From NCBI GenBank assembly GCA_934096275.1, contig CAKOLK010000003.1:28366-92365 (forward strand): a DNA stretch of 64,000 bases. The letters run 5' to 3'. A program made the translations under genes and the position numbers. Origin of the DNA: an uncultured Bacilli bacterium. GTDB taxonomy: Bacteria; Bacillota_I; Bacilli_A; RF39; UBA660. Below the pieces are notes generated by a model. It did no database searches. It was not told where the DNA came from and saw only the letters and a list, made by a program, of their open reading frames with translations. Shown in pieces: positions 11,590-58,624 of this stretch (its first letter is position 1; each line of letters starts with the position of its first letter).

Positions 11590-14109
11590 ATGAAAAAATA
11601 TGATAAAAAAGACTATATAAACCTAGCAATTTTAATCATATTTTTTTTAGTATTTATAACTATATTAATGCTATGTACAAAAAACTCAATATATGGTTCA
11701 AAACTAGACTATGCAGATCAACACTACATGATTCCCGAATACTTTAGAACTCTTTTCTACAATAGCAAACAACTATTTCCAAACTTTGCCCTTAACTTAG
11801 GAATGGGACAAAATATATACAACTTTTCATACTATGGACTACACAGTCCAATAATACTAATATCATACCTATTACCATTCATTAAAATGGCAACCTATAT
11901 ACAAATAATCTCTATCATCTGCATAATACTTGATATAATCCTATTCTATAGATACATATCAAACCACTATGAAAATAAAACAATAAGATTCATATCAACA
12001 TTCATACTACTTTGCTCAGCATCACTAATACTTCACTCACATAGACACATAATGTTTGTAAACTACATGCCATTTCTAATACTAGGATTCATATCAATAG
12101 ATAACTACTTTAATCAAAACAAAAAAACACTCCTTATGATAAGCATAACCTTAATAATACTAACAAGCTACTTCTTTAGCGTTCCAGCCTTAATAAGCCT
12201 AATACTATACGCAATATTTATCTACTTACAAAACAACAATTTCAAATTAAAAAACTTTATAACAACATTCTTAAAATTATCCATTTACTTTATAATACCA
12301 ATAATGATAAGCGCAATCCTCTTATTTCCGACCCTAACAGCAATTTTAAATAATAGACTAGACAATAACACTACAACATCACTAATAAATCTTATAACTC
12401 CAAACCTATCATTTGAATACCTATTATATAGTTGTTACTCACTTGGATTAACAAGTTCATTTATACTTGCACTTGCAAACGGTCTATTATCAAAACAAAA
12501 ACAGTACAAGTTCTTAAGCATAACATTCCTTTTACTTGGACTATTCCCAATATTTATCTACATCCTAAACGGAGGAATGTATATAAATGCTAAAGTCTTA
12601 ATACCAATGGTACCACTTGCAATAATACTTCTTTCAAAACTATTTAGTGATATCATAAATAAAAATATAAAACTAATTCCTTTACTAGTCCTAACAATAA
12701 TATTAAGCCTAATAGGAAGTATAAACTTTAACTTTGACAGAGTATACCTAATAGACATAACATTCCTATTACTTTGCTTAGTTCTAACAATAAAAAGAAA
12801 AAGCAACATAGTATACTTTATAATAATACTAATGTCAACAGTTAACTTAATAAGCGTAAATGTAATAGACAAACTAGAAACAAAAGATCAAATAAAAACC
12901 CAATATAATGAAAACATTAAAGATTTAATTAAAGAAAATACTAATCTAGAAAAAACCCACGTCGAAATAAAAGATAACATAAATGACACCAACAACATAA
13001 GAAACATAAATGAAATGAAAACTACTATGTACTCATCACTTACTAATAAATACTACAACAATTTCTACTGGAACGAAATAAATAATAACAATCCATATCG
13101 TAATTCAACAATAATAAGTGGAACAGATAATATTTTCTATAACATATATACAAATACAAAAAACTATATAACAACAAAAGAAGCCCCAATCGGGTACCAG
13201 TTAGTAAAACAACAACAAAACTATAAACTATATCAAAACCCTGATACATTTAAAACAATATATGCAAATACTAACTTAATGTCCTTAAATGAGTATAAAA
13301 AACTTTCTCATCCCAAAAGCACTGAAGCCTTGTTAAACTACACAATAGTAAATGATGATAATATAAAATCAAACTATAAAACAAATATAAAAGAAATAAA
13401 CTATAACGAAGAAAAAATACCATTTACAAAAAAAGATAATAAATACTCATTTAAACTAGATAAAAAAACAAACTATACCATTCCATTAGAAAAAAACTAT
13501 CAAAACAAAATCCTAATGATAAGCTTTGATATGAACTATTCACAAAAATGTTCAATCGGAGACACATACATAATAATAAATGGTGTAAAAAACACTCTAA
13601 CTTGCAAGAGTTGGAAATACCATAACCAAAACTATACATTTGATTATGTCTTATCAAGTGATAACATCAACTCACTAGATATAACAATATCAAAAGGAAA
13701 ATTCATAATAGAAAACATAAAAGTATATGAAATGGACTACAACGATTTAAAAAACATTAATAAAACACACGATAACTTAAATATAACAAGTATAAAAGAA
13801 AACCAAATAAACGGTACAATAAACGTAAAAGAAGACTCATACTTAAACATAAACATTCCATATGATAAAGGATTCGAAATATACATAGACAACATCAAAC
13901 AAGACTATGAATTAATAAACACAGCATTCATGGGAACAAAAATATCCAAAGGTTTCCATGAAGTAAAAATAATATACAATGCTCCAATGTTAAAACAATC
14001 AAAAATAATATCACTAATCGGAGCAATACTATTTATAATTATAACAATAATAGACAAAAGAAAGAAGGTTGAATATGAAAAAAGTATCAATGATAATACC
14101 ATGCTATAA
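11590..14109 (+). CDS. yfhO: YfhO-family GT-C membrane glycosyltransferase
   Basis: 839 aa. Roughly 430 aa of multi-TM N-terminus, an extracellular C-terminal domain and a final TM. Adjacent to GT2 and GtrA genes. Confidence 0.65.
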   Translation: MKKYDKKDYINLAILIIFFLVFITILMLCTKNSIYGSKLDYADQHYMIPEYFRTLFYNSKQLFPNFALNLGMGQNIYNFSYYGLHSPIILISYLLPFIKMATYIQIISIICIILDIILFYRYISNHYENKTIRFISTFILLCSASLILHSHRHIMFVNYMPFLILGFISIDNYFNQNKKTLLMISITLIILTSYFFSVPALISLILYAIFIYLQNNNFKLKNFITTFLKLSIYFIIPIMISAILLFPTLTAILNNRLDNNTTTSLINLITPNLSFEYLLYSCYSLGLTSSFILALANGLLSKQKQYKFLSITFLLLGLFPIFIYILNGGMYINAKVLIPMVPLAIILLSKLFSDIINKNIKLIPLLVLTIILSLIGSINFNFDRVYLIDITFLLLCLVLTIKRKSNIVYFIIILMSTVNLISVNVIDKLETKDQIKTQYNENIKDLIKENTNLEKTHVEIKDNINDTNNIRNINEMKTTMYSSLTNKYYNNFYWNEINNNNPYRNSTIISGTDNIFYNIYTNTKNYITTKEAPIGYQLVKQQQNYKLYQNPDTFKTIYANTNLMSLNEYKKLSHPKSTEALLNYTIVNDDNIKSNYKTNIKEINYNEEKIPFTKKDNKYSFKLDKKTNYTIPLEKNYQNKILMISFDMNYSQKCSIGDTYIIINGVKNTLTCKSWKYHNQNYTFDYVLSSDNINSLDITISKGKFIIENIKVYEMDYNDLKNINKTHDNLNITSIKENQINGTINVKEDSYLNINIPYDKGFEIYIDNIKQDYELINTAFMGTKISKGFHEVKIIYNAPMLKQSKIISLIGAILFIIITIIDKRKKVEYEKSINDNTML

Positions 14110-50386: not shown

Positions 50387-50551
50387 TTAATTCCATGCTC
50401 TAGCACCAAGTATAATTATTAATAAAATAAATAAAACTAAGATAATAGCATAATTATTTCCATAACCTGTAGCATATCCATAGTTAGTTGGCATTTGATT
50501 GCAACAACTTCCTGTATTCCCATATCCATAGGAATTACCATAATAATACAT
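50387..50551 (-). CDS. YjcZ-family tiny sporulation-associated membrane protein (54 aa)
   Basis: ggagg RBS. Gly/Tyr-rich N-terminus followed by AIILVLFILLIIILGA. Absent from the ORF track. Confidence 0.5.
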   Translation of the reverse strand: MYYYGNSYGYGNTGSCCNQMPTNYGYATGYGNNYAIILVLFILLIIILGARAWN

Positions 50552-50682
50552 AAGCATCCTCCTTTAACTATCTATTATAGTTTATTATACATAAGCAATT
50601 TGTGTTATTATAAAAACACAATTTCATAAAATATTTGCAAAAATAATACTATGATGTTATTATTATAATGAGGTAATAATAT

Positions 50683-51875: not shown

Positions 51876-52589
51876 ATGGAAAGATTAAAAGATTTTTTTT
51901 ATGATAATAAAACTATAATTATCATAACCATATCATTAGTACTAATAATACTAACAAACACATTACAATACTATTACTTTAAAAATAGTATAAAAGAAGA
52001 ACCATCAAACGATATTTCATTAAAAAACCATCAAGAACAAGAGCAAGAATACATCTATATTGATATTCGGGGAGAGATAAAAAAACCTGGAGTATACAAA
52101 ATATCAAAAGATAAAAGAGTAATAGATGCAATCGAAATAGCTAAAGGACTAACAAATAACGCAGACACATCAGTAAACAACTTAAGCATGCAACTAAAAG
52201 ATGAAATGGTAATAATAATCTACAGTAAACAAGAAGTAAAAAACTTTATTAAAACAAAAGAAAAAGAACAACTAAAAGAAGAAAACTGTTCTAAAGAACA
52301 AAATAATATTAAAAATGATTCTTGCATTACTCAAGATAAAAAAGAAAACAAAACTACCATTAAAACACAAGAAGACAAAAAAGAAGGAACTAAAACATCA
52401 TCAATCATAAACATAAATACTGCATCCCTTGAAGAATTAACAACCCTAAAAGGAATAGGAAGTAAAAAAGCACAAAAAATAATTGAATACAGAACTAAAT
52501 CACCATTTAAAACCAAAGAACAAATAATGGAAGTATCAGGAATCGGAGAATCACTATATAACAAAATAAAGGATAATATAACAACATGA
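51876..52589 (+). CDS. comEA: competence protein ComEA (helix-hairpin-helix DNA-binding)
   Basis: INTASLEELTTLKGIGSKKAQKIIEYR. Confidence 0.85.
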   Translation: MERLKDFFYDNKTIIIITISLVLIILTNTLQYYYFKNSIKEEPSNDISLKNHQEQEQEYIYIDIRGEIKKPGVYKISKDKRVIDAIEIAKGLTNNADTSVNNLSMQLKDEMVIIIYSKQEVKNFIKTKEKEQLKEENCSKEQNNIKNDSCITQDKKENKTTIKTQEDKKEGTKTSSIININTASLEELTTLKGIGSKKAQKIIEYRTKSPFKTKEQIMEVSGIGESLYNKIKDNITT

Positions 52590-54652
52590 AACTATTACAA
52601 AAAGATTTTACATATTATATACTTTTAATAATAACAATAATCATATTTCTAATATCAATAAACATAACCAAAGAATCTACATACAAACAAATAAAAAATG
52701 AACAATTCAAAATAATAGAAAAAACTAAAAAAGACTATGGAATAAAACTAATTCTAAAGGGAAGAGAAAAAGTATTGGCATACCTCTACATAGATAAAGA
52801 TAAAATAGATAACGAATATAATAAATATGATCTTGGAGATATAATAACTATAACAGCACAAGAAAAAGAAATAAAACAAAAAACATTAGATAATACATTT
52901 GACTATAAAAAATATCTAAATAATCAAAAGATATATAAAGTAATAGAAATAACTGATATAAAAATAAACACTAAAAACAAAAATATTTTCTACAAAATAA
53001 AAAATAAAATAATAAAAAGACAAGAAAAGATACCAAAATCAAAACCCTATATAAACAGTCTAATTCTAGGAAACAATTCCTACTTAGACGAAGATATAAT
53101 AACATCATATAGAAAAAGTGGAATAAGTCATTTATTTGCTATATCAGGAACACATATAAACATTCTACTAATTATACTATATAATATCTTAAAAAAACTA
53201 AAACTAAAAGAAAATAAAATAAGTATAATAACAATACTATTTCTAATATACTATATGTTTCTAACAAACTTTTCCATGTCAGTACTAAGAGCATCAATAT
53301 TTACAATTCTAATAATTATAAATAAACTATTAAAACTAAATATAAAAAACAAAAATCTATTAATATTAACACTCTTCATAATAACATTAAATAATCCCAA
53401 AAACATATTAAATATTGGACTACAATTCTCAGTTTTAATAACATACTATCTAATAACATATAACAAACTAATAAATAATAAAAAAACATACCTTAAGAAG
53501 ACACTAATCATATCATATATATCCACTCTGGTGTCGCTACCAATCCTAGTTAATAGTTTTTACCAAATAAATACTTTATCAGTAATATACAACCTTTTCT
53601 TTGTACCATACGTATCATTTGTTTTATTACCATTTACTTTAATAACATATATTTTTCCACCATTTGATAATATATTAAAAATCTTAATAGACATAAATGA
53701 AAACTTATCACTATTAGTAAGTAATATAAACATATCAAACATAATAATTAAAAAATTATCAATACCACTTATAATAATTTACTATATACTAATAACAATA
53801 AACTTTAGAAAAATTGAGAATAATAATAAGTTTAATATAATAATTATAATGTTTATAATACTTCTTAGCCTAAGAACTGTAAGTGGTAATCAAATTACAT
53901 TTATAGATGTAGATCAAGGAGATAGTACCTTAATTACTATAAATAATAAAACAATTCTAATAGATACCGGAGGAAATATAAATTATAAAAATAAAGAATA
54001 TAAATACCAAATATCAAAAAATAAAATATTACCATATATGAAATCAATTGGCATAAAAAGAGTTGACTATTTAATATTAACTCATGGTGATCAAGATCAC
54101 ATGAAAGAATCAATTTATTTAGTAGAAAACTTCAAAATAAAAAAAGTTATATTTAACTGTGGGCCATATAATGAGTTAGAACAAGAACTAATAAAAATAT
54201 TAAATAAAAAAAGTATTAAATATTATAAATGTATAAAAAATATAGACATAGGTAATTATAAGTTAGAGTTTTTAAATACTAAGATATACAATAATGAAAA
54301 TGACAACAGTAGTGTTATCTATCTAAATTGTAACAATAAGAAGTTTTTATTCATGGCAGATGCATCACAAGAAAGAGAAAAAGATATATTGGATAAATAC
54401 AATATAAAAGATATAGATGTTTTAAAAGTAGGGCATCATGGTTCTAGAACAAGTTCTAATAAAGAGTTTATAGATAAAGTAAAACCAAAATACTCAATTA
54501 TTAGTGTTGGAAAAAATAACAGATATGGTCATCCAAATAAAGAAGTATTAAATACTTTAGATAATTCAAAAATATATAGAACAGACGAGGATGGAAGTAT
54601 TACATTTAAAATTACAAACAACAAGTTAAAAATTAAGACCTGTTGCAGATAG
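52586..54652 (+). CDS. comEC: DNA internalization competence protein ComEC/Rec2
   Basis: Competence membrane domain plus a C-terminal metallo-beta-lactamase (LTHGDQDH). Confidence 0.85.
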   Translation: MKLLQKDFTYYILLIITIIIFLISINITKESTYKQIKNEQFKIIEKTKKDYGIKLILKGREKVLAYLYIDKDKIDNEYNKYDLGDIITITAQEKEIKQKTLDNTFDYKKYLNNQKIYKVIEITDIKINTKNKNIFYKIKNKIIKRQEKIPKSKPYINSLILGNNSYLDEDIITSYRKSGISHLFAISGTHINILLIILYNILKKLKLKENKISIITILFLIYYMFLTNFSMSVLRASIFTILIIINKLLKLNIKNKNLLILTLFIITLNNPKNILNIGLQFSVLITYYLITYNKLINNKKTYLKKTLIISYISTLVSLPILVNSFYQINTLSVIYNLFFVPYVSFVLLPFTLITYIFPPFDNILKILIDINENLSLLVSNINISNIIIKKLSIPLIIIYYILITINFRKIENNNKFNIIIIMFIILLSLRTVSGNQITFIDVDQGDSTLITINNKTILIDTGGNINYKNKEYKYQISKNKILPYMKSIGIKRVDYLILTHGDQDHMKESIYLVENFKIKKVIFNCGPYNELEQELIKILNKKSIKYYKCIKNIDIGNYKLEFLNTKIYNNENDNSSVIYLNCNNKKFLFMADASQEREKDILDKYNIKDIDVLKVGHHGSRTSSNKEFIDKVKPKYSIISVGKNNRYGHPNKEVLNTLDNSKIYRTDEDGSITFKITNNKLKIKTCCR

Positions 54653-54668
54653 AAAGGAAGATGATAAA

Positions 54669-55565
54669 ATGAATGAAATAGATAAGACATACCTACAAAT
54701 TGAAAATAAAGTATTAAATCACGAAGTATATCAAAATGTAAAAGATTATTCCAAAGCAAAAGAAAAGATAAAAACATATTTAGAAGTTGGAAGTCTACTT
54801 AACGGTGTAGATACCAAATACGGGAAGAATGTAATAAAAGATTATTCTAAAAGACTAACAATTAAATTCGGTAAGAAATATTCAACATCATTATTATATA
54901 AAATCAAACAATTTTATATAATAATAGAAAAAGTCCCGACAATGTCGGGAAAATTAACATGGAGCCATTGATATGAAATGTTATCTTTTGATGACGTAAA
55001 TAAAATAGTATATTATGTAAATCAATGTGAAATTTATAATTTAGATGTCAGAGAATTAAGAAATAGAATAAAGTCTAATGAATATGAAAGATTACCCATA
55101 GATGTAAGAAATAAATTAAAAAGTAGAAATGAAATAAAAATAATAGACTTTGTTAAAAACCCTATTCATATTAGAAATAATGATAAAAAAGAAATTATAT
55201 CTGAAAAAATACTACAAAAGTTAATACTTGAGGATATACCAGCATTTTTAAAAGAATTAGGTAATGGCTTCACTTTTATTGATAATGAATATAAAATTAA
55301 ATTAGATGATAGATATAATTATATAGATTTGCTTCTATATAATATTAGGTATAAGTGTTATGTAGTAGTAGAATTAAAAGTAACAGAACTAAAAAAAGAA
55401 CATACAGGTCAAATTATGACTTACATGAATTACATCAATAAAAATATAAAAACACTAGAAGAAAATGGAACAGTAGGTATTATTATTTGCAAACAAGATA
55501 ATGAGTATGTAATTAGATATTGTTCTGATGATAGGATAATTGCTAGAGAATATGAACTTATATGA
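54669..55565 (+). pseudogene. YhcG/DUF1016-family PD-(D/E)XK nuclease gene interrupted by an in-frame TGA (54969-54971)
   Basis: ORFs 54669-54971 and 54978-55565 are in the same frame and together align end-to-end with the intact paralog at 55904. TGA replaces the TTT (Phe) of the ...SWSHF... block. Confidence 0.6.
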
Positions 55566-55740
55566 TACGATAGTTAATAATATCTTAATTTAATCTTATA
55601 ATCATCAAATGGTAGAGTTATTTTTGCATAAAAAAATATAAGAACATCGACATATACCAATTTATTTGTATTTACGATAATGAAAAATCAAAATATGAGT
55701 TCTTATATAAAAGTAAATAAAATCAGAGTATCCAATAATA

Positions 55741-55890
55741 CCGACAGGCAAGAATAATAGATATAATCATCCAAACGAAGAGACATTAAATAATTTAGAA
55801 AAATCTAAGATATATAGAACAGATCAAGATGGAAGTATTACATTTAAAACTAGAAATAACAAGTTAAAAATTAAGACTTGTTGCAGGTAG
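55741..55890 (+). repeat. untranslatable copy of the last ~150 bp of comEC (about 85% identical to 54517-54652) heading cassette 2
   Basis: Direct alignment: aataatagatataatcatccaaa...aagttaaaaattaagacttgttgcaggtag. Confidence 0.8.
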
Positions 55891-55903
55891 AAAGGAGTAA
55901 AAT

Positions 55904-56785
55904 ATGAATTATTATAATGAAATAAAGAATGTGCTAGTAAACAACGAAGTAAACAGAACAATAAAAAATTATTCAATTAATAAAAGTAATTTAAATGCTT
56001 ACTATAATGTTGGAAAATTATTGTTAGATGCAGGAAACAAATATGGAGAAAGCATTATTAAAGAGTATTCATTAAGATTAACTAAAGAATTGGGTTCAGG
56101 ATATAGTCAAAGAAACTTAAGAAATATGAGACAATTTTATAAAGTATCTCAAAAATGGCAGACGCTGTCTGCCAAATTAAGTTGGAGTCATTTTTGTGAA
56201 ATTATTTGGTTTGATGATGACAAGTTTCAATATTATGTCAAAATCACTGAATTAAATAATTTATCAATCAGACAGCTAAGAGAAAAAATAAAATCTAATG
56301 AATATGAAAGAGTACCGAAAAAGACTAAAAATAAGTTGATAAATCAAGATAAATCTAGTGCAGTAGACTTTGTGAAAAATCCAATTTTGATTAGAAACAG
56401 CAATAGATATAATATATTTTCAGAAAAAATATTACAAAAACTAATTTTAGAAGACATTGAAAACTTCCTAGATGAATTAGGAAATGGCTTTACATTTATT
56501 AAAAGTGAATATCCTATTAGATTAGATGATAGATATAATTATATAGATTTGCTTCTATATAATATCAAATATAAATGCTATGTAGTAATAGAATTAAAAA
56601 TCACTGAACTAAAAAAAGAACACACGGGTCAAATTATGACTTATATGAATTATATTGATAAAAACATTAGAACACTAGAGGAAAATGAAACAGTAGGTAT
56701 TATCATTTGCAAACAAGATAATGAGTATGTTATAAAATATTGCTCTGATGATAGAATAATAGCTAGAAAATATGAACTTATATGA
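55904..56785 (+). CDS. YhcG/DUF1016-family PD-(D/E)XK nuclease
   Basis: C-terminal nuclease core ...DLLLYNIKYKCYVVIELKITELKKEHTGQ... (D..ELK) and an N-terminal DUF1016-like region. Confidence 0.65.
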   Translation: MNYYNEIKNVLVNNEVNRTIKNYSINKSNLNAYYNVGKLLLDAGNKYGESIIKEYSLRLTKELGSGYSQRNLRNMRQFYKVSQKWQTLSAKLSWSHFCEIIWFDDDKFQYYVKITELNNLSIRQLREKIKSNEYERVPKKTKNKLINQDKSSAVDFVKNPILIRNSNRYNIFSEKILQKLILEDIENFLDELGNGFTFIKSEYPIRLDDRYNYIDLLLYNIKYKCYVVIELKITELKKEHTGQIMTYMNYIDKNIRTLEENETVGIIICKQDNEYVIKYCSDDRIIARKYELI

Positions 56786-56922
56786 TACGATAATTAATAA
56801 TATTTTAATTCAAATAACTAATTTAATCTTATAATCATCAAATAGTAGAGTTATTTTCGAATAAAAAAATATAAGAACATCGACATATATCAATTTATTT
56901 ATATTACGATAATGAAAAACCA

Positions 56923-57122
56923 AAACTAGTAAAGAGTTTATAGATAAAATAAAGCCAAAATATTCAATCATTAGTGTTGGAAAAAATAACAGATATAATC
57001 ATCCAAATAAAGAAGTATTAAATACTTTAGATAATTCAAAAATGTATAGAACAGATCAAGATGGAAGTATTATGTTTAAAATAAAAAATAATAAATTAAA
57101 AATAGAGACTTGCAGTCCATAG
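56923..57122 (+). repeat. untranslatable copy of the last ~200 bp of comEC (about 88% identical to 54471-54652) heading cassette 3
   Basis: aaagagtttatagataaaataaagccaaaatattcaatcattagtgttgg... through tag. Also shares the following RBS and the first 12 nt (atgaatgaaata) with the comEC-proximal gene. Confidence 0.8.
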
Positions 57123-57138
57123 AAAGGAAGATGATAAA

Positions 57139-57972
57139 ATGAATGAAATAAAAGAATATACAAAAAAAGTTTTCGAAGATATTAAACATATTGATAATAA
57201 TGGTGATGAGTATTGGTATGCTAGAGAATTACAAAATATATTAGAATATACACAATGGAGAAGATTTGAAAATGTCATTAATAAAGCAAAAATTGCATGT
57301 AAGAACTCAAACATTAAGATTGATGACCATTTTGCCAACGTCGGCAAAATGGTTGATATAGGTTCAAATACCAAAAGAATAACTAAAGATTATAGACTAA
57401 CAAGATATGCATGCTATCTAATTGCACAAAATGGTGATTCCAGAAAAGAAGTAATAGCACTTGCTCAAACTTACTTTGCCATTCAAACAAGAAAACAAGA
57501 GCTTTCTGATAAAGAATACAATAAACTTAGTGAAGATGAAAAAAGATTATATCGGAGAAACCAAGTAAAAAGCGGTAATTATAACTTGAACAAAACAGCA
57601 GTTAAAAGTGGAGTAAAAGATTTAGCTAGGTTTCATAATACTGGATATAAAGGACTTTATAATGGAAAAACAGCAGATGATATTTTTAAAAGAAAAAAGC
57701 TCAGATATAGAGAAGATATACTAGATAACATGGGTAGTGAAGAACTCGCAGATAACATATTTAGAATTGCTCAAACTGATGCTAAACTAAAAAGAGATAG
57801 TGTAGATAATGAGTATACTGCAAATTCAGTTCACTATGAAATTAGTAGAATAGTAAGAAATGCAATTAAAGAAGCAGGTGGTACAATGCCAGAAGAACTA
57901 CCAACACCATACAAAAGTTTAAAAGAATTAGAAAAAGAAAATAAAAAATTAGAGATAAAAAATCTAGATTAA
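57139..57972 (+). CDS. dinD: DinD-like DNA-damage-inducible protein (Bro-N-like N-terminus)
   Basis: LTRYACYLIAQNGD, AQTYFAIQTRKQEL, HNTGYKGLY and GGTMPEELPTP blocks resemble E. coli DinD as I remember it. Confidence 0.6.
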   Translation: MNEIKEYTKKVFEDIKHIDNNGDEYWYARELQNILEYTQWRRFENVINKAKIACKNSNIKIDDHFANVGKMVDIGSNTKRITKDYRLTRYACYLIAQNGDSRKEVIALAQTYFAIQTRKQELSDKEYNKLSEDEKRLYRRNQVKSGNYNLNKTAVKSGVKDLARFHNTGYKGLYNGKTADDIFKRKKLRYREDILDNMGSEELADNIFRIAQTDAKLKRDSVDNEYTANSVHYEISRIVRNAIKEAGGTMPEELPTPYKSLKELEKENKKLEIKNLD

Positions 57973-58312
57973 TACAATAAACATACTACAAAAACTGATA
58001 AAATAATTATAATATTTCAGACCATTTTTTGAGTTCAATAATATAATCACAACATGTAACAATTTCAAAAAATAAAAAACTAAGAATTATTTAAAAAAGC
58101 TTATAAATAAATATAAATCAAATAAGAATAAAACTAAATAAAACTGCATATACTAAACATGTAGCACATAAAAACTAAATACATAAAATATATTATAAAG
58201 GGAGAACGCTAATCGCTAGCCCTTTAGCGTTTATATAGATCAAAGAGCTTAAATGCTCTTTTTATTTACTTACTAATAATTAAGTGATAAAATTATATCA
58301 AGGAGTGATAAC

Positions 58313-58624
58313 GTGGACGATAAAAGATTCAAAATGATTGATGAAGAGTTTATTTGTAAAAATTGCAACACCATAGTTAAACCACTAGGATACACTGCAA
58401 GAGATCATTGTCCTAAATGTTTATACTCAATTCACATAGACAACAACCCTGGTGATAGAAAATGCACCTGTCAAGGATTCTTAAAACCAATCGGAGTGGA
58501 AAAACATAAAGATACATATAAAATAATATATAAATGTGAAAAATGTAAAGAAATTAAAAAAAATATATGTGCAAAAGATGATAACATGGATGAAATAATA
58601 AGACTAAGTGTTATAAATGATTAA
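58313..58624 (+). CDS. RNHCP-domain zinc-ribbon protein
   Basis: CKNC...ARDHCPKCLYS...C.C pattern. Confidence 0.55.
   Translation: MDDKRFKMIDEEFICKNCNTIVKPLGYTARDHCPKCLYSIHIDNNPGDRKCTCQGFLKPIGVEKHKDTYKIIYKCEKCKEIKKNICAKDDNMDEIIRLSVIND

Follow-up and report, generated by a model that had tools for sequence, protein, structure and literature searches.

The stretch of DNA analysed here (the window) comprises 64,000 nucleotides of contig CAKOLK010000003.1, from an uncultured Bacilli bacterium; its GC content is low (26.6%) and it uses the standard genetic code. Downstream of the competence gene comEC it bears three single-gene cassettes in tandem, interspersed with copies of the comEC 3′-end. 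Unless stated otherwise, the genes, modules and spacers of the window given below lie on the + strand. The comEC gene (52586..54652) is intact and specifies a protein of 688 aa with matches to the domains Competence (PF03772, 171 bits) and Lactamase_B (PF00753, 71 bits). It follows comEA (51876..52589; Pfam HHH_3 and SLBB), which is the first gene of a putative transcription unit and is syntenic at all related loci (designated here by L numbers). Exact-protein look-ups of the window ComEC and of P0001 matched no record. The sequence coding for the HGDQDH core of the metallo-beta-lactamase domain of ComEC, located with a regular expression and by alignment, is found at 54083..54103; the long comEC remnants of other species begin at this core, but no repeat in the window does. 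The 3′-terminal part of comEC forms the resident module (H1, 54456..54680), the reference copy of a repeat family (D1), which contains codons ∼624–688, the TAG stop codon (54650–54652), a ribosome-binding site (RBS) and the first 12 nt of the next gene.

That next gene, yhcG1 (54669..55565), is the cargo of cassette 1. It specifies a YhcG/DUF1016 PD-(D/E)XK nuclease-like protein but is inactivated, its DUF1016_N and YhcG_C domains being spread across two open reading frame (ORF) halves; the gene is cut by a TGA codon at 54969–54971 where sister strains have TGG, and its counterpart in L001, L002 and L037 is an intact ORF of 297–298 aa. Genetic code 4, in which TGA specifies Trp, was considered as an explanation for this stop and rejected, as TGA closes 12 of the 61 long ORFs. 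A non-coding spacer (flank 1, 55566..55700) leads from the yhcG1 stop to the first displaced comEC module (H2, 55701..55903), an in-frame C-terminal coding remnant with a TAG stop (55888–55890) and an RBS of type B. The cargo of cassette 2, yhcG2 (55904..56785), is intact (293 aa) and belongs to the YhcG/DUF1016 family according to its scores for PF17761 (91.8 bits, cutoff 32.8) and PF06250 (122 bits, cutoff 32.5); the D...ExK motif (IDLLLY...VVIELK) is present in both yhcG genes. A second spacer (flank 2, 56786..56925) runs from the yhcG2 stop to H3 (56926..57150), a displaced module that keeps codons ∼624–688 in frame, encodes the C-terminus KIETCSP and ends with TAG at 57120–57122; its right part holds an RBS and the first 12 nt of dinD. 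This last gene (57139..57972), the cargo of cassette 3, encodes DNA damage-inducible protein D with a Pfam Bro-N domain; NCBIfam model NF008573 assigns it to DinD with 353.5 bits over residues 3–274 (cutoff 242). The period of the units is regular, about 1.23 kb. The next conserved gene beyond the array (58313..58624) encodes an RNHCP domain (PF12647), lies outside the cassettes and is 94–97% identical in all strains of the window's species; from comEC up to this gene the + strand has just two terminator-like hairpins (58214..58261). Strain-to-strain homology to the right of the array picks up again at about 58041–58070. Since two independent assemblies from other samples (L037 and L038) show the same three units, the array is not an assembly artefact.

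A preliminary description of the window had reported that the comEC 3′-end recurs twice downstream. A repeat search, and blastn against the whole window, bore this out: the segment 54456–54680 recurs at 56926–57150 (88.6% identity over 228 nt, E 2e-81), and the segment 54509–54658 at 55747–55896 (84.7% over 150 nt, E 6e-44), the alignment of this second copy showing that more diverged comEC homology extends back to about 55700. No further copy was found by blastn elsewhere in the 64 kb. The cargo order it had given (a nonsense-mutated yhcG-like gene, an intact one, then dinD) agrees with the Pfam and NCBIfam matches and with the TGA codon, and the 3′ flank it had seen in both yhcG units is indeed shared (55586–55693 versus 56819–56925, 93.5–94% identity); this flank was found only in the window's species. 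Its statement that each copy includes 12 nt from the start of the next gene (atgaatgaaata) holds only for copies 1 and 3; in copy 2 the shared RBS is followed by a different spacer, and the gene starts with ATGAATTATTATAATGAAATAAAG. When the 135–140-nt flank was folded, on either strand, no structure appeared beyond that of shuffled controls (z-scores 0.2 to 1.1), and an attC-like site or a terminator in the flank was rejected for this reason. An Rfam search with permissive thresholds found no match in the array; its one hit was an S15 leader, close to rpsO in L064.

The three modules differ from one another mostly at synonymous positions. The pairwise ratios of non-synonymous to synonymous substitution rates (dN/dS) were 0.11–0.15, with dS values of 0.7–1.2 (over 46 codons); for H2 versus H1 the ratio was 0.15, and for H3 versus H1 0.13–0.15. 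These values, about 0.13, point to divergence under purifying selection. H2 is 95% identical over 46 codons to the resident comEC end of the sister strain at L024, and 93% identical to that at L002, while H3 is 95% identical to the resident end at L050. The last 18 residues of H3 are the terminus of the ComEC of L006, a protein otherwise about 49% identical. Judged from their codons, the modules are shown to be former or alternative functional comEC termini, not decaying duplicates. The segment formed by flank 2, H3 and the start of dinD is kept at 93% identity in L050, which has a different yhcG allele.

The array varies among strains of the window's species, which share the same downstream RNHCP gene and are 94–98% identical over ComEC residues 1–623. 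Their cassettes number one (L024), two (L001, L050) or three (L002, L037, L038 and the window). The simplest layout is comEC-dinD, in L024, followed by comEC-yhcG1-module-dinD in L001 and L053; L050 and L051 have this same layout with another yhcG allele, and L054 has a yhcG2-like gene before dinD. In L002, yhcG1 precedes a yhcG2 truncated at codon 120 and another dinD allele, and L003 contains a further distinct yhcG, internally deleted. The species thus has at least four yhcG and three dinD alleles. A second species is also polymorphic (one cassette in L063, three in L064 and L065), and across related strains and species the number ranges from zero to three. An identical arrangement in all related genomes, named in the preliminary description as the outcome that would speak against successive insertions, was therefore not found; the insertions themselves, each bringing a comEC terminus and displacing the prior one, fit the presence of one to three cassettes, the drop in identity at the boundary reported below, and the 95% matches to sister ends.

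Comparison of these strains also revealed exchanges between modules. The L001 locus equals the window minus cassette 2; the two are colinear to mid-H2 and again from mid-H3, and the single module of L001 is a hybrid, H2 in its 5′ portion and H3 in its 3′ portion. This is a crossover between two direct repeats that removed cassette 2, or else the reverse insertion. In L002, yhcG2 is joined to the module via a 13-nt microhomology (ATTAAATAATTTA). The first ∼1600 nt of the resident comEC are 93–100% identical among strains; in L002, L003 and L024, however, identity drops to 77–87% once the left edge of the repeat (nt ∼1860) is reached, and L050 and L004 are mosaic with respect to the window, showing a 72% tract at nt 1601–1800, then 90–94%, then 78%. 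In strain comparisons the resident gene goes from 94–99% identity before the repeat boundary to 77–87% right after it. These alignments show the modules to recombine with each other, cassette deletion, hybrid modules and a swapped resident terminus being the products.

The right edge of the array is also variable, since in L024 dinD is separated from the RNHCP gene by an additional ADP-ribosylglycohydrolase gene (1931–2695), inserted along with an upstream region of its own. At the 3′-end of the window's RNHCP gene (58575–58598), a 24-nt sequence (AAGATGATAACATGGATGAAATAA) matches the end of the comEC module (54658–54681) at 22 of 24 positions, covering the spacer after the RBS and the start codon region (blastn E 0.001 in the window). 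The stretch is conserved in sister strains, and may be due to chance or be an old junction.

Related loci were obtained by cargo-centred look-ups, by a scan of species-representative genomes, which led to metagenome-assembled genomes of uncultured gut Bacilli from Hadza, Nepal, rabbit and ruminant samples, and by a metagenome scan, which rendered 8 loci. The same architecture was present in at least seven other species of gut Bacilli, with comEC remnants of about 580 bp, making at least eight lineages in all. Loci L032–36 are organised as comEC-yhcG-orf123-remnant (196 aa), L057–59 as comEC-yhcG-orf315-remnant followed by lexA, L060–62 as comEC-dinD-orf169-remnant, L066 as comEC-dinD-orf106-remnant-orf98-holA, and L042–49 as comEC-dinD-orf215-pcrA. 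In L063, comEC-dinD-WDGH is followed by a decayed remnant and rpsO; the three units of L064 and L065, which belong to the same species, each end in a remnant of 196–211 aa. L005 and L008 contain decayed remnants, and of L020 and L012 one has yhcG between comEC and its downstream gene and the other does not. Decay was also seen in L057, L060, L035 and the third remnant of L063–65, as would be expected of relics. The gene on the right differs in every species (RNHCP, cmpB-like, pcrA, lexA, an HD-domain gene, rpsO, holA), which argues that the anchor is comEC itself. L008 has a different cargo after comEC (12128–13389), consisting of a Peptidase_C39-like protein of 191 aa and a protein of 150 aa with internal repeats. 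Both are enclosed by fragments of a decayed comEC remnant, in which a stretch of 25 residues matches the resident ComEC of L032 perfectly (100%).

The resident C-terminal parts of ComEC in cassette-bearing species, together with the remnants, form a single pool with about 80–90% identity. The cargo is similarly close across species (84–89% for YhcG2-type proteins, 80–91% for comEC-adjacent DinD), against backgrounds in the same species of 33–50% for the N-terminal parts of ComEC and 42–56% for FtsW and ComEA. By this measure, the units and modules are shown to have crossed species boundaries. The ComEC proteins of L032 and L006 are only 38–39% identical up to residue 500, but 88/75/92% identical in the successive segments that follow, and the remnant behind the L032 cargo is only 62–64% identical to anything else; on these identities the resident 3′-end of L032 is foreign, and its remnant is probably the displaced native comEC end.

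The preliminary description had also allowed for tandem duplications. In such a reading, the array would be the product of local tandem duplication of a segment containing the comEC 3′-end and yhcG, with later divergence in place and no mobility. The regular unit period and the 94% identity between the 3′ flanks of the yhcG units could be read in this way, and unequal crossing-over between modules clearly happens. Yet yhcG pairs within one array are just 53–63% identical (63% for yhcG1 and yhcG2), while yhcG2 is 84–89% identical to genes of other species, which excludes local duplication and divergence and indicates that arrays collect different alleles. Nor does such a duplication account for the mostly synonymous differences between modules and their matches to the resident ends of other strains, for the foreign resident 3′-ends in several species, or for the unrelated gene in the third unit, and we consider it extremely improbable.

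As to the cargo, the YhcG-like proteins match the PADLOC model PDC-S02 (E 1e-66 to 4e-123; 1e-66 for yhcG2), and DinD matches PDC-S13 (E 6e-102) as well as a type I specificity-subunit fusion model. PDC-S02 and PDC-S13 are candidate phage-defence systems, not validated defences; the cargo probably acts in defence or in the control of incoming DNA. Inactivation of cargo genes was seen repeatedly. In addition to the nonsense codon in yhcG1 of the window, there is one in dinD of L001 (∼13400), a truncation of yhcG2 in L002 (13627–13639), an internal deletion of yhcG in L003 (5782–6070) and a yhcG fragment in L065 (2905–3303); yhcG is truncated in L007 too. Such recurrence suggests that these genes are costly or dispensable, and under fluctuating selection. 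A yhcG gene 88% identical to yhcG2 was found in L039–L041 (808–1701) after an endonuclease IV (nfo-like) gene and a terminator.

It had been proposed that the cargo nucleases might themselves mobilise the unit. The YhcG-like protein would then behave as a free-standing homing endonuclease that cuts a cassette-free comEC, with repair importing the gene together with a co-converted comEC 3′ stretch. The YhcG_C domain is a PD-(D/E)XK nuclease domain with the D...ExK motif present, foreign tracts of variable length do occur in the 3′ part of comEC beside the cassette, and the native end could in principle persist after one-ended repair and end joining. Homing, however, replaces its target, while here the comEC 3′-end is duplicated. 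Moreover, dinD cassettes lack a nuclease domain but have the same architecture and spread; yhcG is often inactive, as detailed above; two different yhcG genes are stacked in arrays; and the family is widespread away from comEC, examples being the yhcG gene of E. coli and, in L039, the one beside nfo. The proposal is thus not sustained, and homing seems to us a quite unlikely explanation.

The RBS of the first cargo gene overlaps the comEC stop codon, and no + strand terminator is found in the window before 58214–58261; for these reasons the window cargo is probably co-transcribed with comEA-comEC. This is not a general trait, since in the species with long modules a terminator-like hairpin closes each cassette ahead of the next module. 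Co-transcription bears on the possibility that position means function, that is, that defence or RecA-modulating genes are selected for expression from the comE operon during competence only, the comEC repeats being incidental scars. The cargo is certainly narrow, the first gene being almost always yhcG or dinD, and DinD of E. coli has been described to modulate RecA filaments (Uranga et al. 2011, as cited in PMC8989531). But the terminator-like ends of the long-module cassettes do not agree with this idea, and it leaves the conserved module pool and the junction element described below unexplained. It is compatible with the explanation we favour rather than exclusive of it; as an account of the locus in its own right we rate it as unlikely.

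The explanation we favour, to which we assign a probability of roughly 0.55, is that the locus represents a cassette hotspot without an integrase, similar to a minimal mobile element (MME), for which the 3′-end of comEC is the anchor. The unit would consist of a comEC 3′ module (∼200 bp here, ∼580 bp elsewhere), an RBS, one candidate defence gene and a spacer, some units also carrying a small accessory gene. On entry, the incoming module would become the working end of comEC, and the former end would be pushed downstream, in frame but silent; repeated entries would give rise to stacked units. Entry would take place by RecA-type homologous recombination of incoming DNA and, with a competence gene as the anchor, natural transformation would be its likely route. 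The left arm would be provided by the comEC body or the module, and a portable right arm by the displaced module behind the cargo, which would allow the unit to insert whatever gene lies downstream. When a donor comEC-[module-cargo-junction]-module meets a recipient comEC-module, the comEC bodies would pair on the left, and the displaced module of the donor with the resident module of the recipient on the right, so that the bracketed segment would be inserted exactly at the module boundary and the donor junction transmitted. Alternatively, a circle excised between two modules could enter by single-crossover integration. Homologous recombination is the simplest sufficient model, explaining why the boundary is constant, the modules are mosaic and units stack regardless of the downstream gene.

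Several observations weigh against this reading, the first of which concern the boundary of the long remnants. Every one of them starts exactly at CAYGGNGAY, in the HGDxDH motif (residue 500 of the window ComEC, 54083), and the start nucleotide, just before CATGG, is the same in at least eight lineages. All long remnants are immediately preceded by a ∼30-nt element, (T)AAATTCGTATGCATAAACGTATGTCACCA, that is not comEC sequence; it was located in L008 (12735–12764), L032 (7341–7370), L057 (6903–6932), L060 (6481–6510), L063 (6257–6286), L064 (2304–2333 and 4390–4419) and L065 (2293–2322). Its mean pairwise identity is 0.81, compared with 0.65 at the third codon positions of the module and 0.37 further upstream, and it holds the direct repeat CGTATG-N6-CGTATG; its role could be regulatory, or it could belong to a recombination site. 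Homologous recombination leaves unexplained both the conservation of this element and the presence of accessory genes between fixed boundaries. The first entry into a naive species, moreover, would need recombination at ∼70% identity (L032), a poor substrate for RecA, and these organisms are uncultured, which makes natural transformation a presumed route. In addition, no comEC sequence or module lies near the yhcG gene beside nfo in L039–L041, which means that the cargo is not strictly tied to comEC. Finally, comEC is disrupted in some cassette-bearing strains: in L058 (2986–4988) it is split into ORFs of 60 and 508 aa, and in L060 (2922–5000) there is a 593-aa ORF and a 300-nt gap, followed by dinD. 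Competence may therefore not always be maintained in such strains.

A rival reading is that the cassettes are cis-mobilisable site-specific elements, resembling cis-mobilisable elements (CIMEs) or staphylococcal cassette chromosome (SCC) elements without a recombinase. A tyrosine or serine recombinase acting in trans would join a circular cassette to comEC at the HGDxDH core, or, in the window's species, at a site near the GHHGS-coding region; the comEC module of the cassette would be the gene-restoring part of attP, and the 30-nt junction element an arm of the site. Apart from the fixed start nucleotide, the conserved element with its direct repeat, and the unrelated accessory genes, this idea is favoured by the more than 100 distinct clusters of 196-aa ORFs in the protein database, all of which begin with MHKRMSPHGD(Y/F)DHM, and by strains that diverge from the first bases after CATGG: the resident comEC genes of L063–65 are 98.6–99.3% identical upstream of the core and 78–83% identical from that point. 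Tandem accretion and restoration of the target 3′-end are also typical of site-specific islands. The 196-aa remnant ORFs were considered as a selected stand-alone gene, which was rejected, given that they are intermixed with resident termini and broken in several strains. A promoter in the junction element (sigma-70-like or cin-box-like, sought by eye) was unconvincing, and none is claimed.

On the other hand, the called genes within 5–10 kb of the arrays, in the six species with gene lists, contained no recombinase Pfam family, and tblastn with the Xer-like protein that follows comEC in L012 and L020 revealed no Xer-like gene in the 64-kb window. That protein matched only the loci of its own lineage and was treated as a housekeeping neighbour. 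A dedicated recombinase like those of SCC/CIME-like elements was thus not found in cis. Scans of viral contigs with the junction element plus core, the comEC remnant and YhcG2 found nothing, and so provide no evidence for a phage or satellite vehicle. Although the left boundary is fixed at CATGG in at least eight lineages, the repeats are long (200–580 bp), mosaic and internally recombining: the resident end of L063 and remnant 2 of L064 are 87/72/92% identical in successive segments, and the deletion seen in L001 crossed over inside the repeats. The window's species, besides, uses a boundary other than HGDxDH. L005 demonstrates that internal deletion can turn a long remnant into a short module: its decayed remnant was picked up by an nhmmer profile built on the core and the 30-nt junction (E 1e-10), which gave no match in the window flanks. 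Lastly, a single ancestral junction inherited via the right homology arm would predict a constant boundary as well. Because homologous recombination leaves the conservation of the element, the first entry and the accessory genes unexplained, we see a recombinase in trans as a serious rival, though a rather doubtful one, and retain homologous recombination between comEC modules as the preferred explanation. A bolder reading is that the cassettes represent a new integrase-less mobile class that parasitises comEC, brings a replacement end for its catalytic domain, enters at the HGDxDH motif by a mechanism that uses the 30-nt element and spreads candidate defence genes across gut Bacilli through transformation. 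This we put forward tentatively; if true, such elements would find their homology target in any cell capable of DNA uptake, and would leave the competence of the host intact.

Both types of cargo gene contain conserved hairpins. All comEC-adjacent yhcG genes have, at the same codons just before the LxWSH motif, a GC-rich stem of 7–8 bp, found in the window at 54934..54950 in yhcG1 (TCCCGACAATGTCGGGA) and 56156..56174 in yhcG2 (TGGCAGACGCTGTCTGCCA), and also in L005, L006, L007, L018, L020, L028, L032 and L050. The hairpin covaries among homologues, with compensatory changes in 7 of 8 pairs and 90% of cells paired, versus ≤42% when the register was slid. On the minus strand the stem is followed by a run of 5–6 T, resembling an antisense intrinsic terminator. 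E. coli K-12 yhcG (L055, 7828–8955) shares the identical core TGGCAGACGCTGTCTGCCA, which makes the hairpin a family-wide nucleic-acid element. The dinD genes have a palindrome of 11–13 bp at the D(D)HF..KMV codons (L001, L005, L024, L042 and L050; in the window, ACCATTTTGCCAACGTCGGCAAAATGGT at 57326..57353, with an 11-bp stem). Its stem sequence varies by allele, and E. coli dinD (L056, 4761–5585) has one at the same position. Only four strong, GC-containing perfect hairpins occur in the 64-kb window, three of them inside the three cargo genes. Unrelated to the array, a small ORF between def and ftsW (50387–50557, − strand) encodes 56 aa rich in Gly and Tyr that end in a hydrophobic tail; its counterpart in L042 shows a weak Pfam match to YjcZ_2.

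The comEC locus would offer a way for single genes to move, to be stacked and to be archived with no visible mobility enzyme, each cassette bringing a working copy of the end of its target gene that later serves as the homology through which the next genome accepts it. Since transforming DNA passes through the ComEC channel, the candidate anti-phage genes (PDC-S02, PDC-S13) would be tied in their spread to natural transformation, a process otherwise discussed mainly as a remover of mobile DNA. Among uncultured Bacilli of the human gut the system is widespread (at least eight lineages, more than 100 remnant ORF clusters), and its chimeric ComEC proteins are natural domain-swap experiments. The analysis also brings to notice the 30-nt junction element, and the covarying hairpins of yhcG and dinD that are shared with E. 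coli.

Literature searches on comEC insertion sites and on DUF1016/YhcG brought up no account of such a locus, but it can be compared with several known systems. Like integron arrays, it consists of single-gene promoterless cassettes stacked promoter-proximally behind a fixed platform; unlike them, it has no intI, no attC-like folded site (the flank is unstructured) and no Rfam match, and its repeats are gene fragments. In staphylococci, SCC composite islands build up at the 3′-end of rlmH (orfX), and in streptococci CIMEs and integrative and conjugative elements accrete in a similar manner; their repeats are short att cores (about 15–30 bp), their recombinases (Ccr, Int) are known, and many units lack a recombinase of their own. 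The comEC cassettes resemble these islands in being inserted at the 3′-end of a conserved gene with no inactivation, in their tandem build-up and in the direct repeats derived from that end, the resident comEC being intact (688 aa) with a 3′-end that is swapped among strains. They differ in that their repeats are coding modules of 200–580 bp that recombine internally, in that no recombinase was found nearby, and in that the units contain a single gene in about 1.2–2 kb.

Polymorphic toxin loci (cdiA-CT/cdiI, rhs, mafB) have orphan C-terminal cassettes; those of MafB are mentioned in PMC3082526. There, as at comEC, silent 3′ fragments of an upstream gene and small genes are arrayed downstream, and recombination swaps the C-terminus. 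In the toxins, however, the swapped C-terminus is the variable toxin and its partner an immunity protein, whereas at comEC the swapped part is the end of a conserved enzymatic domain and the variable payload a separate gene. A genomic island in streptococcal comEC (Del Grosso et al. 2002, listed in PMC12378983) provides another case of comEC targeted by horizontally acquired DNA; going by that entry, the streptococcal insertions disrupt comEC and abolish competence, while the cassettes described here rebuild an intact reading frame.

By analogy, the closest known concept is that of the MMEs of Neisseria (Saunders & Snyder 2002; Snyder et al. 2007), as defined in PMC3082526. Differing whole-gene cassettes are found at one chromosomal site in different strains in both cases, with no associated mobility genes (here, in the Pfam lists of six species and by tblastn in the window). 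In both, exchange is ascribed to homologous recombination in conserved flanks, in hosts with a DNA-uptake apparatus; its footprints were seen here in the L001 hybrid module and the mosaics, transformation being the presumed step. The 30-nt junction element has no counterpart in MMEs. These elements sit between two conserved genes and replace one another; at the comEC locus, in contrast, comEC is always on the left, the right neighbour is constant within a species but variable between species, and the displaced comEC module seems to stand in for the second conserved flank. Unlike an MME, then, the comEC cassette carries the 3′ part of its left-flank gene as its own right-hand homology, stacks in tandem with others, and would appear to work across species and with unrelated genes downstream.

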